Assembly (NCBI RefSeq): GCF_054482525.1
Contig: NZ_CM137006.1
Reading direction: 5' to 3' (one strand)
Length of the DNA stretch: 64,000 nucleotides
Shown: in pieces, positions 4,702 through 17,982 of the stretch
Numbering within the stretch: the first letter of the stretch is position 1
Layout of the letters: every line of letters begins with the position of its first letter
Notes under the pieces: generated by a model
The model's input: only the letters and a program-made list of their open reading frames with translations
What the model was told of the DNA's origin: nothing
Database searches by the model: none
Program-made: the position numbers and the translations under genes

Positions 4702-6369
4702 GTGGCTCAATTCGTTTATACCATGCATCGTGTCGGCAAAGTTGTTCCGCCGAAACGTCATATTTTGAAAAACATCTCTCTGAGTTTCTTCCCTGGGGCA
4801 AAAATTGGTGTCCTGGGTCTGAACGGCGCGGGTAAGTCCACCCTGCTGCGCATTATGGCGGGCATTGATAAAGACATCGAAGGCGAAGCGCGTCCGCAAC
4901 CGGATATCAAGATTGGTTATCTGCCGCAGGAACCGCAGCTGAACCCGGAACACACCGTGCGTGAGTCCATTGAAGAAGCGGTTTCTGAAGTGGTTAACGC
5001 CCTGAAACGCCTGGATGAAGTGTATGCACTGTACGCCGATCCGGATGCCGATTTTGACAAGCTGGCCGCTGAACAAGGCCGTCTGGAAGAGATCATTCAG
5101 GCTCACGACGGTCACAACCTGAACGTTCAGCTGGAGCGTGCGGCGGATGCGCTGCGTCTGCCGGACTGGGACGCGAAAATCGCTAACCTCTCCGGTGGTG
5201 AGCGTCGTCGCGTGGCGTTGTGCCGCCTGCTGCTGGAAAAACCAGACATGCTGCTGCTCGACGAACCGACCAACCACCTGGATGCCGAATCCGTGGCCTG
5301 GCTGGAACGCTTCCTGCACGACTTCGAAGGCACCGTTGTGGCGATTACCCACGACCGTTACTTCCTTGATAACGTTGCAGGCTGGATCCTCGAACTGGAC
5401 CGCGGTGAAGGTATTCCGTGGGAAGGCAACTACTCCTCCTGGCTGGAGCAGAAAGATCAGCGTCTGGCGCAGGAAGCTTCACAAGAAGCGGCGCGTCGTA
5501 AGTCGATCGAGAAAGAGCTGGAGTGGGTACGTCAGGGGACTAAAGGCCGTCAGTCGAAAGGTAAAGCACGTCTGGCACGCTTTGAAGAGCTGAACAGCAC
5601 CGAATATCAGAAACGTAACGAAACCAACGAACTGTTTATTCCACCAGGACCGCGTCTGGGCGATAAAGTGCTGGAAGTCAGCAATCTGCGTAAATCCTAT
5701 GGCGATCGTCTGCTGATTGACTCCCTGAGCTTCTCGATCCCGAAAGGAGCGATCGTCGGGATCATCGGTCCGAACGGTGCGGGTAAATCGACCCTGTTCC
5801 GTATGATCTCCGGTCAGGAACAGCCGGACAGCGGCACCATCACTCTGGGTGAAACGGTGAAACTGGCATCGGTTGATCAGTTCCGTGACTCAATGGATAA
5901 CAGCAAAACCGTTTGGGAAGAAGTTTCCGGCGGGCTGGATATCATGAAAATCGGCAACACCGAGATGCCAAGCCGCGCCTACGTTGGCCGCTTTAACTTT
6001 AAAGGGGTTGATCAGGGTAAACGCGTTGGTGAACTCTCCGGCGGTGAGCGCGGTCGTCTGCATCTGGCGAAGCTGCTGCAAGTTGGCGGCAACATGCTGC
6101 TGCTCGACGAACCAACCAACGACCTGGATATCGAAACCCTGCGCGCGCTGGAAAACGCCCTGCTGGAGTTCCCGGGCTGCGCGATGGTTATCTCGCACGA
6201 CCGTTGGTTCCTCGACCGTATCGCCACGCACATTCTGGATTACCAGGATGAAGGTAAAGTTGAGTTCTTCGAAGGTAACTTTACCGAGTACGAAGAGTAC
6301 AAGAAACGCACGCTGGGCGCAGACGCGCTGGAGCCGAAGCGTATCAAGTACAAGCGTATTGCGAAGTAA
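4702..6369 (+). CDS. ettA: energy-dependent translational throttle protein EttA (ABC-F ATPase)
   Basis: 555 aa ORF with two ABC ATPase domains (GLNGAGKST... LSGGERRR...; GPNGAGKST... LSGGERGR...). Confidence 0.93.
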   Translation: MAQFVYTMHRVGKVVPPKRHILKNISLSFFPGAKIGVLGLNGAGKSTLLRIMAGIDKDIEGEARPQPDIKIGYLPQEPQLNPEHTVRESIEEAVSEVVNALKRLDEVYALYADPDADFDKLAAEQGRLEEIIQAHDGHNLNVQLERAADALRLPDWDAKIANLSGGERRRVALCRLLLEKPDMLLLDEPTNHLDAESVAWLERFLHDFEGTVVAITHDRYFLDNVAGWILELDRGEGIPWEGNYSSWLEQKDQRLAQEASQEAARRKSIEKELEWVRQGTKGRQSKGKARLARFEELNSTEYQKRNETNELFIPPGPRLGDKVLEVSNLRKSYGDRLLIDSLSFSIPKGAIVGIIGPNGAGKSTLFRMISGQEQPDSGTITLGETVKLASVDQFRDSMDNSKTVWEEVSGGLDIMKIGNTEMPSRAYVGRFNFKGVDQGKRVGELSGGERGRLHLAKLLQVGGNMLLLDEPTNDLDIETLRALENALLEFPGCAMVISHDRWFLDRIATHILDYQDEGKVEFFEGNFTEYEEYKKRTLGADALEPKRIKYKRIAK

Positions 6370-6399
6370 TGCATAAAATGCCGGATGCGGCGCGCCAGC

Positions 6400-6520
6400 A
6401 TCGCATCCGGTATTAGTTAAATGATTAGTCCCCGGAAAAAGGCAGAATTTTCTTTAAGCGTATTAGCTCAGATGCGGACTGACACCTCAAATCAAGCGGG
6501 AACTCATGGTTCCCGCTTAA
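6400..6520. terminator. bidirectional terminator region between convergent ettA and LysR-family gene (REP-like GC hairpin plus second hairpin); approximate
   Basis: gccggatgcggcgcgccagcatcgcatccggt hairpin after ettA stop; aagcgggaactcatggttcccgctt hairpin after LysR gene stop. Confidence 0.5.
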
Positions 6521-6524
6521 CGTT

Positions 6525-7412
6525 TTATTCACCGCGCAAAATCTGGCGGAAATGGGAAACCAGCGGACGTTGGTTGGCTTTATGCCAGGCTGCCCATAAT
6601 TGCGTTGAATAATTCATCCACGGCAATTCACGTAATACCACCCCTTCCGGCGCATTATGACGCAGACTATGTTGAATTAAGGCCAGACCTAATCCCGCAG
6701 CGACCAGACCTAAGGCCGTGAGTGGTTCACCCGCTTCCAGGCGAATATCAGGATTAAACCCGGCGTTAACACAGGCGGCGACAAAATGATCGCGAGAATG
6801 CGCATCGTCGTTATGAATCACCGCAATCCACTGCTCATCGCCAAGTTGTGACGCGACAAGGTTTTCCTCCTGCGCCAGAGGATGATTTTGCGGTAAGGCC
6901 AACAACATTCGATCATCCAGAACCTGAATATATTCCAGATCCTGCTCGCTGTCGGTGGGCGGCGTATCGACCAGAGAAAAATCGAGACTGCGCTGGCGCA
7001 GGCCTTCAATCTGGGTCGCCGGTGGTTGGCTGTAAAGTGCGATATGCACATTCGGACGCGATACACGTAACGTACGTAGCGCCGTAGAAAGCACACCGGA
7101 ATGCATGGCGTTTTCGATATAGCCAATACACAAGCCACCATCTTCCCCCCGTCCCAGGCGTTTGCCTAACGACTCCAGGCGGTTGGCGTGTGTCAGCAAC
7201 GAACGTGTTTCGGCAAGGAATGTCTGTCCATCAGCGGTCAGGCGAATGCGCTGCTGATTACGCTCAAACAGCGTCAGCCCCAGCCGTTCTTCCAGTTGTG
7301 CAATCTGGCGGCTCAGCGGTGATTGCGAGATATGTAATCGCTCGGCTGCGCGTCCCACGTGCTCTTCTTCTGCGACCACCACGAAGTACTTCAGTTGGCG
7401 TAAATCAATCAT
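6525..7412 (-). CDS. LysR-family transcriptional regulator (LTTR), divergent from AKR-SDR-SRPBCC operon
   Basis: ORF 6525..7505; LTTR HTH start MIDLRQLKYFVVVAEEEHVGRAAERLHISQSPLSRQIAQLEERLG at codon 32; ATG with GAGG RBS. Confidence 0.8.
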   Translation of the reverse strand: MIDLRQLKYFVVVAEEEHVGRAAERLHISQSPLSRQIAQLEERLGLTLFERNQQRIRLTADGQTFLAETRSLLTHANRLESLGKRLGRGEDGGLCIGYIENAMHSGVLSTALRTLRVSRPNVHIALYSQPPATQIEGLRQRSLDFSLVDTPPTDSEQDLEYIQVLDDRMLLALPQNHPLAQEENLVASQLGDEQWIAVIHNDDAHSRDHFVAACVNAGFNPDIRLEAGEPLTALGLVAAGLGLALIQHSLRHNAPEGVVLRELPWMNYSTQLWAAWHKANQRPLVSHFRQILRGE

Positions 7413-7458
7413 GTTAGACCTCAAAGGACTTAAGTCAGACGAATTATGTCCTATCAAG

Positions 7459-7482
7459 TCACAACCTCGCAAGGTATTGTGA
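7459..7482. promoter_or_regulatory. candidate LTTR operator TCACAA-N12-TTGTGA in the LysR/AKR divergent intergenic region; approximate
   Basis: interrupted inverted repeat between the divergent start codons (7412 and 7546). Confidence 0.35.
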
Positions 7483-7545
7483 TCCACGTCACAGGGCGAT
7501 AGCAAAAAAATGCCCTAACCCAAACCGAATAATTGAGGACATCTT

Positions 7546-8556
7546 ATGAGCATCAAAAATTTACTTCCCGGCAAAATTGGCTTAGGCGGCGCACCACTCG
7601 GCAACATGTTTCGTGCCATTCCGGAAGACGAGGCCCACGCCACCGTGAGCGAAGCCTGGAACCTGGGCGTGCGTTACTTTGATACCGCGCCGCTGTACGG
7701 CTCTGGCCTTTCTGAAATCCGCATGGGCGAAGCGCTGTCTCAGTATCCACGTGATGAATACGTTCTGAGCAGCAAAGTCGGCCGCATCATGCTGGACGAA
7801 ATGGAAGATCCGGCAAAACGTGATTTCGGTGAAAAAGGTGGCCTGTTCGAACACGGCCTGAAAAACAAAATTCTGAATGACTACTCTGCTGACGCCACGC
7901 TGCGCTCAATTGAAGACAGCCTGAAACGCCTGCAAACAGATCGTCTGGATATTGTCTGGATCCACGACCCGGCGCAGGACTTCTACGGTGACAGCTGGCT
8001 GGAACAGTTCAACATAGCCCGTACCGGTGCGTTTCGTGCGCTGACACGTTTGCGTGACGAAGGTGTGATTAAAGCCTGGGGACTGGGTGTGAATCGCGTC
8101 GAACCTTGCGAACTGACGCTGGCGCTGGACGAACCGAAGCCGGATGCGTTCCTGCTGGCGGGGCGTTATTCCCTGCTGGATCACGAACGTGCGCTGCAAC
8201 GCCTGATGCCAGAAGCACTGGAACAGAACGTGGATATTGTTGTGGGCGGTCCGTACAGCTCTGGCGTACTGGCAGGCGGCGAGCACTTTGAATATCAGAA
8301 AGCTTCTGCGGCCATCCAGCAGAAAGTGGCGCAAATTAACACCATTGCCACACGTTTCAATGTGAACGTTAAAGCAGCTGCGCTGCAGTTCGCGCTGGCA
8401 AACCCGGCCGTTGCGGCGGTTATTCCTGGCTCCAGCCGTCCTGGCCGTATGGCAGAAGATCTGGCCGCACTGAATGCGCCTGTTCCGGCTGAATTCTGGG
8501 CAGAAATGCGCCGTCAAAATCTGGTTGCGGAAAACGCTCCGCTGCCGACCCGTTAA
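7546..8556 (+). CDS. aldo-keto reductase family oxidoreductase
   Basis: 336 aa ORF MSIKNLLPGKIGLGGAPLGNMF...GVRYFDTAPLYGSG...; AKR signature; RBS TGAGGA. Confidence 0.8.
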   Translation: MSIKNLLPGKIGLGGAPLGNMFRAIPEDEAHATVSEAWNLGVRYFDTAPLYGSGLSEIRMGEALSQYPRDEYVLSSKVGRIMLDEMEDPAKRDFGEKGGLFEHGLKNKILNDYSADATLRSIEDSLKRLQTDRLDIVWIHDPAQDFYGDSWLEQFNIARTGAFRALTRLRDEGVIKAWGLGVNRVEPCELTLALDEPKPDAFLLAGRYSLLDHERALQRLMPEALEQNVDIVVGGPYSSGVLAGGEHFEYQKASAAIQQKVAQINTIATRFNVNVKAAALQFALANPAVAAVIPGSSRPGRMAEDLAALNAPVPAEFWAEMRRQNLVAENAPLPTR

Positions 8557-8575
8557 TCAACCTGGTGAGAAAACG

Positions 8576-9373
8576 ATGAAACTGGATCTGACAGGTAAAG
8601 TCGCGGTGGTCAGCGGCTCAACCTCCGGCATTGGGCAGGGTATCGCCGCCGGACTGGCAAAAGCAGGCGCAACGGTGGTTGTCGTCGGCCGTAAACAGAG
8701 CGGCGTTGATGACGCCATGGCTGCGATTGCGGCACAAACCCCCACAGCGTCACTGCGCGGCGTGGTGGCGGATCTCAGCACCGAAGACGGCGTGGCTGCG
8801 CTGATCGCTGCAGTCCCAACGGCTGATGTGCTGGTCAATAATCTGGGCATTTTTAACGATAAAGATTTCTTTAGCGTTCCGGATGATGAGTGGATGCACT
8901 TCTATAACGTCAACGTCCTCTCCGGCGTTCGTCTGGCGCGTCACTATGCGCCAGGCATGACGGAACAGGGCTGGGGGCGGATTATTTTTGTCTCGTCCGA
9001 ATCCGGCGTGGCAATCCCTGGCGACATGATCAACTACGGCGTCACCAAAGCCGCGAATCTGGCGGTTTCTCATGGTCTGGCGAAACGACTGGCGGGGACC
9101 GGTGTGACCGTCAACGCCATACTGCCAGGGCCAACCTTTACCGATGGCCTGAAAGAGATGCTGGCGGATGCCGCTGCACAATCGGGACGCAGTGCGCGTG
9201 AACAGGCCGATGAGTTTGTTAAAACCTCGCGTCCGAGCTCCATCATCCAGCGTGCGGCGGATGTGGAAGAAGTAGCGAATCTGGCGGTTTATCTCGCGTC
9301 ACCGCTTTCCTCGGCAACCACAGGGGCAGCCCTGCGCGTCGATGGCGGTGTCGTCGACACCCTGACTATGTAA
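8576..9373 (+). CDS. short-chain dehydrogenase/reductase (SDR) family oxidoreductase
   Basis: ORF 8474..9373; Rossmann motif start MKLDLTGKVAVVSGSTSGIGQGIA at ATG 8576 with GGTGAG RBS; YxxxK-type catalytic region. Confidence 0.8.
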   Translation: MKLDLTGKVAVVSGSTSGIGQGIAAGLAKAGATVVVVGRKQSGVDDAMAAIAAQTPTASLRGVVADLSTEDGVAALIAAVPTADVLVNNLGIFNDKDFFSVPDDEWMHFYNVNVLSGVRLARHYAPGMTEQGWGRIIFVSSESGVAIPGDMINYGVTKAANLAVSHGLAKRLAGTGVTVNAILPGPTFTDGLKEMLADAAAQSGRSAREQADEFVKTSRPSSIIQRAADVEEVANLAVYLASPLSSATTGAALRVDGGVVDTLTM

Positions 9374-9398
9374 CCCTATAAATTAAGAGAAAATTATC

Positions 9399-9815
9399 AT
9401 GGCTAAAACAACTGTATCGATCGAAATTCCGGCTTCTACCGACGCCGTATGGCAATTGATGGGCGGCTTTGATGCGCTGCCAGACTGGCTGCCGTTCATC
9501 CCGAAAAGCGTAGTGACAGAAGGCGGTCGCGTTCGTTCGCTGACAACCTCTGACGGCGGCACTGTGGTTGAACGTCTGGAAGCGTTTGATAACCGTCAAC
9601 GCAGTTATACCTATTCCATTATTCAGGCACCGTTCCCGGTGGTGGATTACCTCTCCACCATTACCGTTCATGAAACCGCCGACAGCCAGGTTTCCCGTGT
9701 GGAATGGTTCGGTGAATTCACCCCGGTGAATGTGACGAACGAAGAGGCCGAAGCGCTGTTTACCGGCATCTATCGGGATGGTCTCAAGGCGCTGAAGGAC
9801 AACTTTGTTGCCTGA
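9399..9815 (+). CDS. SRPBCC (Bet v1-like / polyketide cyclase-dehydrase fold) family protein
   Basis: 138 aa ORF MAKTTVSIEIPASTDAVWQLMGGFDALPDWLPF...; 25 bp after SDR gene, likely same operon. Confidence 0.65.
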   Translation: MAKTTVSIEIPASTDAVWQLMGGFDALPDWLPFIPKSVVTEGGRVRSLTTSDGGTVVERLEAFDNRQRSYTYSIIQAPFPVVDYLSTITVHETADSQVSRVEWFGEFTPVNVTNEEAEALFTGIYRDGLKALKDNFVA

Positions 9816-9972
9816 TGCAATCGACAGGCGTCGGAACGTCCGGCGTCTGATTATTAACAAAATCAGAATAGTCTATTGTCATTTGTATCATTTATGTTAT
9901 CAGGCAGCAGGCGTATTCTCTCCCCATCGCGTTAATAAACGCCAAACAATTAAGACACTCTGGAATATAAAC

Positions 9973-10185
9973 ATGAAAACGATCATCGCAATTTTTACAG
10001 CTTCTCTTTTCTCTGTCGCGGCGTTTAACGCATCGGCGCAAAGCGTGACAGCAACCGGTACAACACTGGATTCCGCTGAAGCGGTTATTGCGCAGAAAGC
10101 GAAAGAGATGAACGCCTCTGAATATAAAATTACCAGCGCTCGCATGGGCAATACCGTCACCATGAGTGCCGAACTGTATAAATAA
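9973..10185 (+). CDS. small secreted DUF1471 (YdgH/BhsA/McbA-like) stress protein
   Basis: 70 aa, signal peptide MKTIIAIFTASLFSVAAFNASA then ...ASEYKITSARMGNTVTMSAELYK typical of the family. Confidence 0.6.
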   Translation: MKTIIAIFTASLFSVAAFNASAQSVTATGTTLDSAEAVIAQKAKEMNASEYKITSARMGNTVTMSAELYK

Positions 10186-10233
10186 TCGCGCGAGGGACCC
10201 ATTACGTAATTTGCTAAATATGCGCTGAATGCG

Positions 10234-10520
10234 TTGCCATTAATAAACCGTATTGTAATGCCACCGATGACGCGTTCCCGCGCGGGTGACGTTGCGACTG
10301 ACATAATGGCGGACTATTACGCGCAGCGCGCCAGTGCTGGACTTTTCATTAGCGAAGGTACGCAAATCAGCAGAAGCGCTGCGCATAATTTTCCACGGCA
10401 CGCTGATTTACTCCGGTAAAGACACCAAAGCGCGCGCCGAACAGGCGCTGGCTAACGGCTAGTCGGATCTGATTGGATTTGGTCGTCCGTATAGTGCCAA
10501 AAGCGGAAGTTGGTAGTTTC
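10234..10520 (+). pseudogene. remnant of an Old Yellow Enzyme (NemA-like NADH:flavin oxidoreductase) gene with large internal deletion and premature stops
   Basis: ORF 10234..10419 INRIVMPPMTRSRAGDV...MADYYAQRASAGLFISEGTQIS matches OYE N-terminus; downstream ...GKDTKARAEQALANG*SDLIGFGRP matches OYE C-terminal region; intervening ~280 codons missing. Confidence 0.55.
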
Positions 10521-10612
10521 AGCCTATGTTGATAAACGGGGAGCCGGTCAGCACGTAAAGAGATTTTTTTGTACTGCTATGGCCCGATCAAAAATCGATT
10601 GAGCCGAATGTG

Positions 10613-10984
10613 CTAGCTATCTCCGAAGATAATTTTTTCGAGCTCCTGCAAGTCCTGCTGTGATTGCTCGTTAAGGTTAGCCTCTAACTTGTCGTACCAT
10701 GTAAGCAGTTTCTTGCCAAGTGGTGTCAAAACCGAGCCTCCACCTTTACTGCCGCCTGTTGATGTAATTACCACCGGCTTACCTATGCCTTTATTGAGTG
10801 TATCAATCAGGAGCCACGCCCTTTTATAGGGGATTCCCAGATCTTTTGCGGCAGCTGAAAGGGAATGAAACCCATCTATAGCTCGTAAAAGATCGATTTT
10901 CCCCGGTCCCAGCGAGATATTGTCATTAATGTAGATTCGGGGTCTGACCAAAATAAAATCAAACATAAGCGTTTTTTTATTCAT
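10613..10984 (-). CDS. ModE N-terminal-domain-like winged-helix transcriptional regulator (no TOBE domains)
   Basis: ORF 10613..11002; MNKKTLMFDF...IDLLRAIDGFHSLSAAAKDLGIPYKRAWLLIDTLNKGIGKPVVITSTGGSKGGGSVLTPLGKKLL; ATG 10984 preceded by GGAG. Confidence 0.65.
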   Translation of the reverse strand: MNKKTLMFDFILVRPRIYINDNISLGPGKIDLLRAIDGFHSLSAAAKDLGIPYKRAWLLIDTLNKGIGKPVVITSTGGSKGGGSVLTPLGKKLLTWYDKLEANLNEQSQQDLQELEKIIFGDS

Positions 10985-11009
10985 TCTGAGAACTCCGTGC
11001 AAAGTATTT

Positions 11010-11816
11010 TTATCGGGTGTGTTTGAAAGTTTTGATGGCAGAAATAAGAAGGATCACACCAAGTAAAGTCATAAGGGCTTTAAGTGGGAACAAGCCGACC
11101 ATAAGTCCACCAATTGCTGCACCAATTACTGAACCAATAACCATCCATACAAACAGTGTCCTTTCTTGCTTCAGAATCAGGAAAGCATCTGCATTTATAT
11201 AACGGGAAAAGCCAACAATCATTGTTGGCAGGCTAATCATCAGTGAAAGACTTCCGGCCAGTTTAATATCTGCCCCGAAAAGGATAACGATTGTGGGGAT
11301 AAGAAGCTCTCCGCCAGCCACTCCGAGCAATGCTGCGACTATCCCGATAAAGCCCCCTGATACCACCCCCACAATAATCATGGCAAGGCCAGGTTGAAAT
11401 AACCCGCCTGAAATACTGTGCAACGGCATCCAGGCTTCAGAGAGCATGACAAAAGACAGTAAAACAAGCAGGATCAGAATGATTCTGTCCAGCCAGATTC
11501 TGGACATCTTTATGGCACGACCTGCGGCCCACCATGCTCCAATAAGACTTCCTGCCAGCAAATTTATGACAATATCAAGATGCGCCACCAACTGATCAAA
11601 AGATATAGATTTTGTTCGGAAAATTAAAGCAATAGCCACCACGGCGAGACTCATTGCTTTGTTAAAAATGACGGCTTCCAGAGAAGGGATTTTGAAACTA
11701 CCGATCAGTACGGGAAGGCGAAATTCAGCCCCTCCGAGGCCAATCAACCCACCTAAAGCCCCTATTACCGCGCCTGAGAAAAAACCTTTACCATTCCTGT
11801 TTGAAACTGACGACAT
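11010..11816 (-). CDS. TauE/SafE (DUF81) family anion (sulfite/sulfonate-type) exporter, integral membrane
   Basis: 268 aa highly hydrophobic ORF with Gly-rich TM helices (GALGGLIGLGGAEF..., GVAGGELLIPTIVILF...); GAGAGGA RBS. Confidence 0.8.
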   Translation of the reverse strand: MSSVSNRNGKGFFSGAVIGALGGLIGLGGAEFRLPVLIGSFKIPSLEAVIFNKAMSLAVVAIALIFRTKSISFDQLVAHLDIVINLLAGSLIGAWWAAGRAIKMSRIWLDRIILILLVLLSFVMLSEAWMPLHSISGGLFQPGLAMIIVGVVSGGFIGIVAALLGVAGGELLIPTIVILFGADIKLAGSLSLMISLPTMIVGFSRYINADAFLILKQERTLFVWMVIGSVIGAAIGGLMVGLFPLKALMTLLGVILLISAIKTFKHTR

Positions 11817-11833
11817 GCGTTCCTCTCTAATTC

Positions 11834-11855
11834 GTTATGTCTTTTTTGACATAAC
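11834..11855. promoter_or_regulatory. perfect inverted repeat GTTATGTC-TTTTTT-GACATAAC just upstream of the TauE RBS (candidate operator or 5'-UTR hairpin); approximate
   Basis: 8-bp perfect arms, 6-nt T spacer, ~18-39 bp upstream of TauE start. Confidence 0.5.
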
Positions 11856-12000
11856 GACAAGCATAGCATTGCAGAACAGGCGTCTGGTAGTTGCTTGTAA
11901 AGACGAGGATTGATCCAGGTTAAAATTTATTCTATTAACCTGCTCTCCGTTGTTTAACACACCACGATTTATGTGATGCTTTCATGAGAAATTAAAACAA

Positions 12001-12207
12001 CTAAGAACTTCCGCTTCTCGCTCGAAGCGGACTGTCAGATTTGATTGCATTCTGGCTACGCAACTGGTCGGTTGGAATATGAAGTTGCTCACGAATAGCC
12101 TTAGCATCCGCAATTTCGTAGCGGGTCACCCGTGCAGGTTCTTTTAAACCTTGTTTAATCTCAACAGCCTCTTCCAGAGAGGTTTTCAACTTATCAAAAA
12201 AACTCAT
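12001..12207 (-). CDS. small ORF with N-terminal similarity to HigA/MqsA-type antitoxins but lacking the HTH; possible gene remnant
   Basis: 68 aa MSFFDKLKTSLEEAVEIKQGLKEPARVTRYEIADAKAIREQLHIPTDQ...; expected HTH helix absent in all frames downstream. Confidence 0.35.
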   Translation of the reverse strand: MSFFDKLKTSLEEAVEIKQGLKEPARVTRYEIADAKAIREQLHIPTDQLRSQNAIKSDSPLRARSGSS

Positions 12208-12240
12208 TTTATACCTCGCCTTTGAGCCGTTTCGTCACGG

Positions 12241-13473
12241 TTATCTCTGCTCGCCCATCATCTCCCGCACCAGCTCCACACAGCGCAGGAAACGGCTGTC
12301 GTAATCGTCCTCTTCAACCCGCACAAATTCGATATTGTTCTCTTCCAGCATCTCCACCAGCAAGTTCTGGAACTCTTTGCGATCCACCGAACTGCCGAGG
12401 CTGCGTAAACCATCCGCCACCCACGGGGTGTTGTTCTCCAGCAGGATCACCAGATCAAAACGGTATTCATCAATCAGCGCCTGCACGAACGGATGCTCCC
12501 GCCCTTCGTACTTTTTGCAGAACGCCTGGGTAGTGACAAAATCAGTGTCGATAAACGCCACTTTATTGGCATATTTCACTGCAAAATCAATGTATTGAGC
12601 GTGTCCCAGCGCGATTTTATCGTAGTCGGAATACTGCAATGCGATCTCATCACCGCCAAGGTGTGAAAAGACATAATCGCGACCATATTCCCATGCACTG
12701 GTAGTGTTGAAGATATTAGCAAGTTTGTTTACCAGGGTTGATTTACCGCTCGACTCGCCGCCAAGGATCGCCACGGTACGCACAAAGAACGGCTTCACTT
12801 CGGTGGGAATATATTCCCAGTAGCGGAACGGGTTTTCGCGGATCTGCGCACCGCTGATACTCATAAAGGTGCGTTTCGGATCGACCAGCACCGTCTCGAT
12901 CCCCAGATGTTCCATATACTGTGGCGCATCGGCTTCTTCCGAGGTGTAGATCAGGTCCGGCTGGATCCCCTTTTCAGCCATAAACTTTTTGATGCCGTTG
13001 CTCCACACATCCCAGCCGTGCGGATACGGCTCCATGCCCTCTTCGTTGAAGGCATGAATACGGATATTTTTCTGATATTTAAAGGTTTGCAATAACCAGC
13101 GCAGACGATCCGGCACCGTGGGCTGCTGCGACATGGCGCTGTCTTCAAACAACGCACGGTCACGGGTATCGTCAAAGCCCATAATGATATGCAGCTCGTC
13201 AACCTGGCTACAGGCGCGCTGGATAAGGTAGATATGTCCGGTATGCAGCGGGTAGAACTTACCGAATACGACACCAATGGTTTTCTTCTGCCGGGGAAAC
13301 TCAAGCCCCAAAAAACGGTGCAACGCCTCCAGCTTTTGCGCGCTGGGGCTTTTAATTTTGGCATTCAGTAACTGGCTTAAATACCCTTTGGTCATACCGC
13401 TGGCATCAGCTACCTGCTGTAGCGTGCAGCCTTGTTGCTTGATGGCAGTTTTCAGGTAATCAAATGACGACAT
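12241..13473 (-). CDS. nadR: NadR: NMN adenylyltransferase / ribosylnicotinamide kinase / transcriptional repressor
   Basis: ORF 12241..13494; K-12-like start MSSFDYLKTAIKQQGCTLQQVADASGMTKGYLSQLLN at codon 8; Walker A GGESSGKST. Confidence 0.92.
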   Translation of the reverse strand: MSSFDYLKTAIKQQGCTLQQVADASGMTKGYLSQLLNAKIKSPSAQKLEALHRFLGLEFPRQKKTIGVVFGKFYPLHTGHIYLIQRACSQVDELHIIMGFDDTRDRALFEDSAMSQQPTVPDRLRWLLQTFKYQKNIRIHAFNEEGMEPYPHGWDVWSNGIKKFMAEKGIQPDLIYTSEEADAPQYMEHLGIETVLVDPKRTFMSISGAQIRENPFRYWEYIPTEVKPFFVRTVAILGGESSGKSTLVNKLANIFNTTSAWEYGRDYVFSHLGGDEIALQYSDYDKIALGHAQYIDFAVKYANKVAFIDTDFVTTQAFCKKYEGREHPFVQALIDEYRFDLVILLENNTPWVADGLRSLGSSVDRKEFQNLLVEMLEENNIEFVRVEEDDYDSRFLRCVELVREMMGEQR

Positions 13474-17718: not shown

Positions 17719-17982
17719 ATGATCGATCTGGAAAACCAGGAACGGGAGATTATCAATTTAATGTTCAGCCAGGGTATATCCTGGATAACTGCCGTGCGTA
17801 TCAGGCATAAACTATCACTTGCTGAAGTAAGTAAAATGTTAGGTATCTCCATTAATTCTCTAAAACAGATCGAAAAGACGGAACGGCTTAGTTCAAACAT
17901 CAAAAGCAAAATGGCAGGAATTTATGGTTGTCCACCAGAGTTGCTGATATGCCCTTCCTGGATGACGGCTGAACATAAATGA
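17719..17982 (+). CDS. small HTH (XRE/Cro-like) DNA-binding protein, strain-specific; sits where K-12 has yjjJ (hipH)
   Basis: 87 aa; HTH-like segment ...ISWITAVRIRHKLSLAEVSKMLGISINSLKQIEKTE...; strong RBS AAGGAAGGA; local sequence is AT-rich. Confidence 0.5.
   Translation: MIDLENQEREIINLMFSQGISWITAVRIRHKLSLAEVSKMLGISINSLKQIEKTERLSSNIKSKMAGIYGCPPELLICPSWMTAEHK

Follow-up and report, generated by a model that had tools for sequence, protein, structure and literature searches.

The 64,000-nucleotide stretch of contig NZ_CM137006.1 (assembly GCF_054482525.1) that was analysed in this work, hereafter termed the window, contains a 68-codon open reading frame (ORF) just downstream of nadR, which raises the question of whether this ORF specifies a small protein with a role of its own or is what is left of a larger gene. 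The original prediction, made from the letters alone, took it for the relic of a toxin-antitoxin (TA) locus that had once marked the edge of an island. The ORF is very probably a non-functional pseudogene, namely the 5' remnant of nadS, which encodes the antitoxin of a HigB2/HigA2-type TA module once located between nadR and ettA. The features of the locus on which this reading is based are given below in the order of their coordinates in the window.

4702-6369, plus strand: ettA, core gene bordering the locus opposite nadR
6370-6426: REP element next to ettA
6427-6457, minus strand: nadS 3' fragment, codons 81-91, with 29 of 31 nt identical to nadS of SCU-176
6458-12082, strand not assigned: island of 5,625 bp, in place of 116 bp of nadS (codons 43-80)
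12001-12207, minus strand: 68-aa ORF with ATG start and stop codon at 12001-12003; product MSFFDKLKTSLEEAVEIKQGLKEPARVTRYEIADAKAIREQLHIPTDQLRSQNAIKSDSPLRARSGSS
12001-12082, minus strand: non-native 3' part of the ORF (codons 43-68 and stop), island sequence in the reading frame of nadS
12010-12031, minus strand: terminator-like hairpin with an 8-bp stem, inside the ORF tail
12083-12207, minus strand: nadS 5' fragment, start codon and native codons 1-42, as identified by NadS HMM, alignment and tblastn
12209-12237, minus strand: toxin-gene remnant, last 29 nt (9 codons and stop), sequence 'TGACGAAACGGCTCAAAGGCGAGGTATAA'
12238-12240, minus strand: deletion junction 'CCG', joining the nadR stop to the toxin remnant
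12241-13473, minus strand: nadR, intact core gene upstream of the stub

The ORF was recovered with exactly the sequence that had been quoted for it, on the minus strand, a detail which the original prediction had left unstated. Since nadR is encoded on the same strand and ends at position 12241, the ORF starts 33 bp past the nadR stop codon, and the spacer (12208-12240) indeed has the length of about 33 bp previously ascribed to it. Homology to nadS begins at the ATG (12207) and breaks off at position 12083, within codon 42 (second base), as judged by alignment with the intact nadS of SCU-176, which holds up to '...GAGCAACT'. These first 125 nt of the ORF are collinear with, and approximately 96% identical to, intact nadS of the same locus. 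The NCBIfam NadS profile NF041265, the curated cutoff of which is 60 bits, matched the 68-aa product with an E value of 1e-21 and 77 bits, residues 1-49 corresponding to profile positions 1-49 of 94, while intact E. coli NadS attains 182.6 bits over positions 1-94. The antitoxin-like start of the ORF is therefore real and far above chance, and a profile comparison of the product, one of the checks that had been proposed, does detect similarity to an antitoxin family.

The helix-turn-helix (HTH) domain expected of such an antitoxin had been reported as missing in every frame, and this was confirmed by a six-frame tblastn of the 94-aa NadS against the whole 64-kb window: only residues 1-49 (12207-12061, 81.6% identity) and residues 80-91 (6461-6426) were matched, residues 50-79 being absent. 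A divergent HTH concealed in the tail or in another frame is ruled out by the same comparison. No Pfam domain was found in the 68-aa product, and this, together with the absence of residues 50-79, identifies the stub as a fragment, or pseudogene, and not as a functional member of the NadS family, whose members are full-length (≈94 aa) proteins with a C-terminal XRE-type HTH (HTH_3). The stub has in common with the family its initial 42-49 residues, its location 33 bp past nadR and its RefSeq label; what sets it apart is that it covers half of the 94 aa, has no HTH and ends in 26 unrelated residues derived from the island. The appropriate classification is thus that of a NadS/HigA2-type antitoxin gene fragment. 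Elsewhere in the window, an 87-aa ORF of the XRE-type HTH class is located between lplA and deoD (17719-17982, plus strand); its match to the NCBIfam NadS profile (E 0.0025) lies below the cutoff, and its position is presumably the one occupied in K-12 by the HipA-like yjjJ.

Annotation in RefSeq agrees with this assignment. The sequence carries the label 'nadS: NadS family protein' in E. coli genomes (megablast against 5,426 complete genomes), and the identical sequence of PCN033 is described as 'nadS ... incomplete; missing C-terminus', so that the call of an incomplete nadS pseudogene is already known. Considering that RefSeq already annotates it and that the mechanism of the family is published, the pseudogene reading is not new; the current work adds the remnant of the toxin gene, a further nadS fragment at a distance of 5.6 kb and the quantified neutral decay. 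No functional study of NadS was found in the literature, where only the expression of K-12 nadS is mentioned.

Beyond codon 42, the ORF no longer resembles either intact nadS or the K-12 allele. The same 77 bp of tail occur only in island-bearing E. coli (≈480 genomes) and, in the commonest form of the island, continue straight into an alkene-reductase pseudogene on the opposite strand. The exact 68-aa protein is present on 221 contigs; among the database proteins that carry the 'HIPTDQLRSQNAIKSDS' tail none is a full-length NadS, and the database variants containing 'HTPTD...' are, without exception, short stubs from E. coli whose ends differ. An origin of the tail as the antisense C-terminus of an alkene reductase was considered and set aside: the likeness is suggestive by eye ('SDLIAF'), and Pfam misses the fragments. 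The hairpin at 12010-12031 was likewise rejected as a terminator, the scan returning one site where 0.9 are expected from shuffled sequences and the fold having a z-score of -1.44; its outer arm is missing in the cassette-less variant L007. A search of region 11500-12500 against Rfam for small or structured RNAs returned nothing credible, the sole match being to a eukaryotic snoRNA model (E 0.34).

To the other side of the ORF, the 33 bp between nadR and the stub consist almost entirely of toxin sequence. The remnant at 12209-12237 aligns with the 3' end of the SCU-176 toxin gene, '(T)TGACGAAACTGCTCAAAGGCGAGATATAA', tblastn pairing 'KLTKLLKGEI' with 'VTKRLKGEV' at this position, and it is within this remnant that the GAGG ribosome-binding site of nadS is located. 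The absence of a toxin-sized ORF between nadR and the stub, noted from the outset, is thus accounted for: all that survives of the toxin gene is its 3' end, 9 codons and the stop. Compared with the intact locus, a net 392 bp are gone, among them the 91-bp promoter region. The second fragment of nadS adjoins the REP element proximal to ettA, as it does in SCU-176, and was matched by tblastn with 'TIKENPAFFREL' paired with 'TLKENSAFFRGL'; the adjoining codons 92-94 and stop were lost through an 11-bp deletion. Because nadS ends at 12083-12207 on one side and at 6427-6457 on the other, the region 6458-12082 represents an insertion into nadS. The earlier proposal that the ORF is the relic of a TA locus is supported by the intact pair found at the same flank (see below), with one refinement: the TA locus was more than a marker of the island edge, as the island lies inside nadS and is flanked by both of its ends.

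A search of related genomes for a full-length pair at the nadR 3' flank, which had been suggested as a check, was successful for SCU-176 and 672 other complete genomes. In SCU-176 the order is nadR, a RelE/ParE toxin (WP_001298496.1, 110 aa, annotated as 'type II toxin-antitoxin system RelE/ParE family toxin'), NadS (94 aa), a REP element and ettA. The toxin matches Pfam RelE, and NadS carries Pfam HTH_3 at residues 35-79; when compared with solved structures, the toxin is similar to Vibrio cholerae HigB2 (E 8e-16) and NadS to HigA2 (E 2e-6, in the HTH region). In Gammaproteobacteria, taking one genome per species, a toxin gene is found directly upstream of NadS at 72 of 80 loci, while nadR is nearby at a single one, that of Escherichia; NadS is consequently a TA antitoxin whose linkage to nadR is specific to Escherichia. 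An AlphaFold (AF2) model of a toxin-linker-NadS fusion, for which a paired alignment of 31 such fusions from different species served as input, gave a mean pLDDT of 84.9 and a pTM of 0.76, with low confidence confined to the linker. It predicts for NadS a helix at residues 3-18 and a strand at residues 26-32 (block-mean pLDDT 90-98), followed by the five helices of the HTH domain. With Foldseek, the toxin part of the model retrieved HigB2 in the HigBA2 complex (5jaa_D; TM 0.86, rmsd 1.9 Å), and the antitoxin part the C-terminal domain of HigA2 (5j9i; TM 0.81-0.84) and the full chains 5jaa_A/B (E ≈1e-3).

Two further observations were made on intact and partly intact loci. The 91-bp spacer between nadR and the toxin gene of the intact locus (L004:4460-4550) contains, by eye, palindromes of the GTGTAC/GTACAC type (AAAGTGTACTTAGTACTCCATTTAGGTGTACAATGTACC), which are likely candidates for NadS operator sites and are absent from the window. 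At several loci of Enterobacterales (L023, L024, L064, L071-L073, L078 and L079) tblastn covers the toxin only in part, starting from query residues 26-75, while the NadS gene downstream is full-length; such loci may reflect a pattern, outside E. coli, in which the toxin decays first.

The intact E. coli pair therefore finds its closest described counterpart in HigB2/HigA2 of V. cholerae (PDB 5JAA, 5J9I and 8A0X; PMC5416850), with which it shares the toxin-first gene order, the toxin fold (TM 0.86, 35% identity) and the layout of the antitoxin, in which an N-terminal helix and a strand precede a C-terminal XRE HTH. Residues 1-36 of HigA2 are disordered, a helix (residues 3-22) and a strand (28-37) forming upon toxin binding; the peptide comprising residues 3-22 suffices to neutralise HigB2, and dimerisation and DNA binding are functions of the C-terminal HTH (PMC5416850). 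The 42 native residues of the stub gave nothing significant in a sequence search of the PDB, and the N-terminal correspondence between NadS and HigA2 is thus one of predicted secondary structure and position, as no sequence similarity is detectable there. By analogy with HigA2, the nadS 5' fragment would comprise the toxin-neutralising segment and the first HTH helix; it keeps the residues of the predicted NadS helix and strand, to which a role in binding is ascribed by prediction, with the single change E6K, while V35A lies just past the strand. Of the module as a whole, the toxin, the promoter and the HTH are all lost in the window: 29 nt remain of the adjacent, co-oriented RelE/ParE toxin gene that intact alleles such as that of SCU-176 possess, and the C-terminal HTH through which such antitoxins autoregulate has disappeared along with the 91-bp promoter region.

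Against this background, the likeness to HigA that had been proposed for the ORF holds in the sense of V. cholerae HigA2. HigA of plasmid Rts1 (Proteus vulgaris), by comparison, binds its toxin through its globular domain and not through an N-terminal disordered segment (PMC5416850). The likeness to MqsA, proposed in the same breath, does not hold: intact NadS matches Pfam MqsA_antitoxin with E 5.6e-4 and 20.5 bits, versus a cutoff of 30, a similarity that concerns only the generic HTH, which is absent from the stub. As both the stub and intact NadS are devoid of any cysteine and hence of the CxxC zinc domain, the stub is not MqsA-like.

Based on these comparisons, the following course of events is proposed. 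In the intact module, the toxin would act as a ribosome-dependent mRNA endonuclease, as deduced from homology with V. cholerae HigBA2; the disordered N-terminus of the antitoxin, as helix and then strand, would fold onto the toxin and inactivate it, and its C-terminal HTH dimer would repress the promoter of the operon. The net 392-bp deletion would then have taken the promoter/operator and all of the toxin gene except its last 29 nt. The antitoxin gene, by then unconstrained, would subsequently have been struck by the 5.6-kb island, which took the place of codons 43-80, leaving an ORF that runs 26 codons into island DNA to a chance stop. Speaking against the pseudogene reading, the window allele still has its ATG, its GAGG ribosome-binding site and an open frame of 68 codons, and its exact product recurs on 221 contigs. 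The stub probably relies on the nadR transcript; given the intact start codon and ribosome-binding site and the lack of a terminator after nadR, the 68-aa peptide may still arise by read-through from nadR. Any such peptide would be without a DNA-binding domain and without a partner toxin, and is best regarded as functionless and drifting.

The distribution of alleles among 5,426 complete E. coli genomes, as determined by megablast, bears on the order of these events. The nadS 5' sequence is present in 4,961 genomes (≈91%), the HTH-coding half of nadS in 730 and the toxin gene in 673; the intact pair retained by these 673 genomes at the same nadR flank supports the view that the locus in the window derives from a TA system. 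Approximately 57 genomes possess full-length nadS without the toxin gene, including MS1718, in which the toxin gene is deleted at the very junction found in the window and which thus represents an intermediate. The same junction (12238-12240) is common to alleles of the K-12 type, of the island type and of the type with orphan but intact nadS, and since the deletion occurs in genomes that have no island, removal of the toxin was an event separate from acquisition of the island. K-12 nadS (WP_000007444.1), an ORF of 55 aa, shares with the window both this junction and the first 37 codons, with 5 amino-acid differences, but REP/BIME sequence interrupts it after codon 37 and no island is present, while in the window allele the break follows codon 42 and is due to the island. 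The parsimonious order, an inference from comparison of the alleles, would be that the toxin was lost first and that the orphan antitoxin was then wrecked independently in different lineages. Loss of an antitoxin in the presence of its active toxin is lethal, which lends support to the toxin-first order.

Several individual alleles were recorded in the course of this comparison. In MS1718 (L006:929-2277), IS1397 is positioned between ettA and the orphan nadS, the start codon of which is TTG instead of ATG. The cryptic-clade isolate Escherichia sp. MOD1-EC7003 (L021:2860-3060) has kept, beside nadR, a full-length nadS together with some 30 codons of the toxin gene; its deletion junction is a different one, and the toxin has therefore been lost at least twice at this locus. 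One E. coli genome encodes an 83-aa nadS variant (P0007) in which the first ≈24 codons are tandemly duplicated (MSFFDELK...KEPGKNKMSFFDELK...).

Constraint on the stub was assessed from changes segregating among 21 genomes. Codons 1-37 exhibit 14 non-synonymous and 5 synonymous changes (pN/pS ≈0.77), compared with 6 non-synonymous and 135 synonymous changes in nadR of the same 21 genomes (pN/pS ≈0.012), a contrast that is significant by Fisher's exact test (p = 8e-12) with a total of only 19 mutations across the 37 codons of the stub. Among the changes, E6K, S10F, A14T, R29H, Y30H and I32F fall within the predicted binding helix and strand. Decayed alleles are of several kinds, comprising ATG>ATA combined with a 1-nt deletion in a T7 run, ATG>TTG, a 10-bp deletion in codons 18-21, truncation by IS26 and read-through into REP sequence. 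The 10-bp frameshift also occurs within the island lineage of the window, about half of the 20 genomes that share the window's cassette having a frameshifted stub. Of 40 records sampled at even spacing, 18 were 1 nt shorter over the matched span, and as this 1-nt deletion accompanies ATG>ATA in the six loci that were sequenced, approximately 45% of genomes probably carry a dead start. The overall pattern looks like that of a drifting, neutrally evolving pseudogene.

The island itself is carried by ≈482 of the 5,426 genomes, and the exact configuration of the window by 20. According to the annotation of the identical PCN033 locus, it encodes a LysR regulator, an aldo/keto reductase, an SDR, an SRPBCC protein, a DUF1471 protein, an alkene-reductase pseudogene, a winged-HTH protein and a TauE/SafE exporter. 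The pseudogene (10234-10500, plus strand), which belongs to the Old Yellow Enzyme family and is described by PGAP as an incomplete alkene reductase, matches Pfam Oxidored_FMN over its N-terminal 46 aa (E 9.5e-8), beyond which there are a large internal deletion and in-frame stops. The slot extending from this pseudogene to the nadS stub (10504-12005) is hypervariable among island-bearing E. coli (L002, L007, L008, L012): it holds the winged-HTH and TauE/SafE genes in the 20 genomes of the window type only, a GNAT acetyltransferase gene in strains 1190 and AF4 and a DUF2846 gene in L008-L010, and is empty in the majority (≈450 genomes). All variants with a filled slot keep the hairpin TCCGCTTCGAGCGAGAAGCGGA and diverge directly past it. 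The winged-HTH/TauE cassette is surrounded by a 34-nt imperfect inverted repeat (10485-10518 and 11999-12032; 76% complementary) with the shared core AGCGGAAGTT..TAGTT, which resembles the terminal inverted repeats of an element devoid of a transposase.

A functional alternative, which we regard as improbable, is that the stub acts as a mini-antitoxin, i.e. that a peptide produced by read-through from nadR neutralises HigB2-like toxins of plasmids or mobile elements, the HTH being dispensable for this purpose. Native residues 1-42 span the predicted helix (3-18) and strand (26-32), a HigA2 peptide of residues 3-22 neutralises its toxin by itself (PMC5416850), the start codon and ribosome-binding site are undamaged, and the K-12 stub was reported to be translated and expressed in a transposon-reporter screen (PMC12350097). 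Toxin homologues are moreover common on plasmids (871 records), those on small mobilisable plasmids of enterobacteria, for example 5.2-kb plasmids of Citrobacter or Yersinia, having ≈81% identity, and 4,961 of 5,426 genomes still contain the nadS 5' sequence. Yet the pN/pS of ≈0.77 includes changes inside the very helix and strand that would have to bind the toxin, and both the allele shorter by 1 nt, seen in ≈45% of sampled records and tied to loss of the start codon in the six loci sequenced, and the 10-bp frameshifts argue against such a role. At megablast sensitivity, no copy of the toxin gene was found in E. coli chromosomes beyond the nadR locus, nor on E. coli plasmids of the same genome collection, and the lingering of 125 bp is what is expected of a young pseudogene beside an essential-region gene. 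If this reading were nevertheless true, the stub would be a chromosomal anti-addiction or immunity micropeptide made from half an antitoxin, which would explain both the persistence of the nadS 5' sequence next to nadR in ≈91% of E. coli and the translation of the K-12 stub; only then would the ORF be of wider interest.

The gene name NadS, a constant spacing of 33 bp from nadR in most E. coli and the expression reported in K-12 could instead be taken to indicate a conserved small protein functionally tied to nadR and unrelated to any TA system, a possibility that had been named as one that would overturn the original prediction and that is contradicted by the non-synonymous and synonymous counts and by the synteny across 80 species. 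NadS is beside nadR at 1 of 80 loci and beside a toxin gene at 72, the C-termini of the stubs are lineage-specific (REP sequence, island DNA or IS26) and the stub evolves neutrally, which makes this reading very unlikely. A chance ORF with a coincidental resemblance to antitoxins, as its short length and lack of a Pfam match might suggest, is hardly conceivable, being refuted by the HMM match (E 1e-21) and by the ≈96% identity of the first 125 nt to intact nadS of the same locus. Both of these latter readings are effectively excluded, leaving the dead relic of a HigB2/HigA2-type module as the best explanation.

As such a relic, the stub matters little in itself and deserves to be labelled as a pseudogene fragment and not as a protein of unknown function. 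The insertion point of the island is now pinned inside nadS, which aids comparison of the nadR-ettA region between strains. The locus furthermore provides a clean natural series of TA decay within a single species, leading from the intact pair through deletion of the toxin, with the antitoxin still intact, to breakage of the antitoxin, the broken antitoxin alleles having arisen independently by means of a gene island, REP sequence, IS26, frameshift and loss of the start codon.
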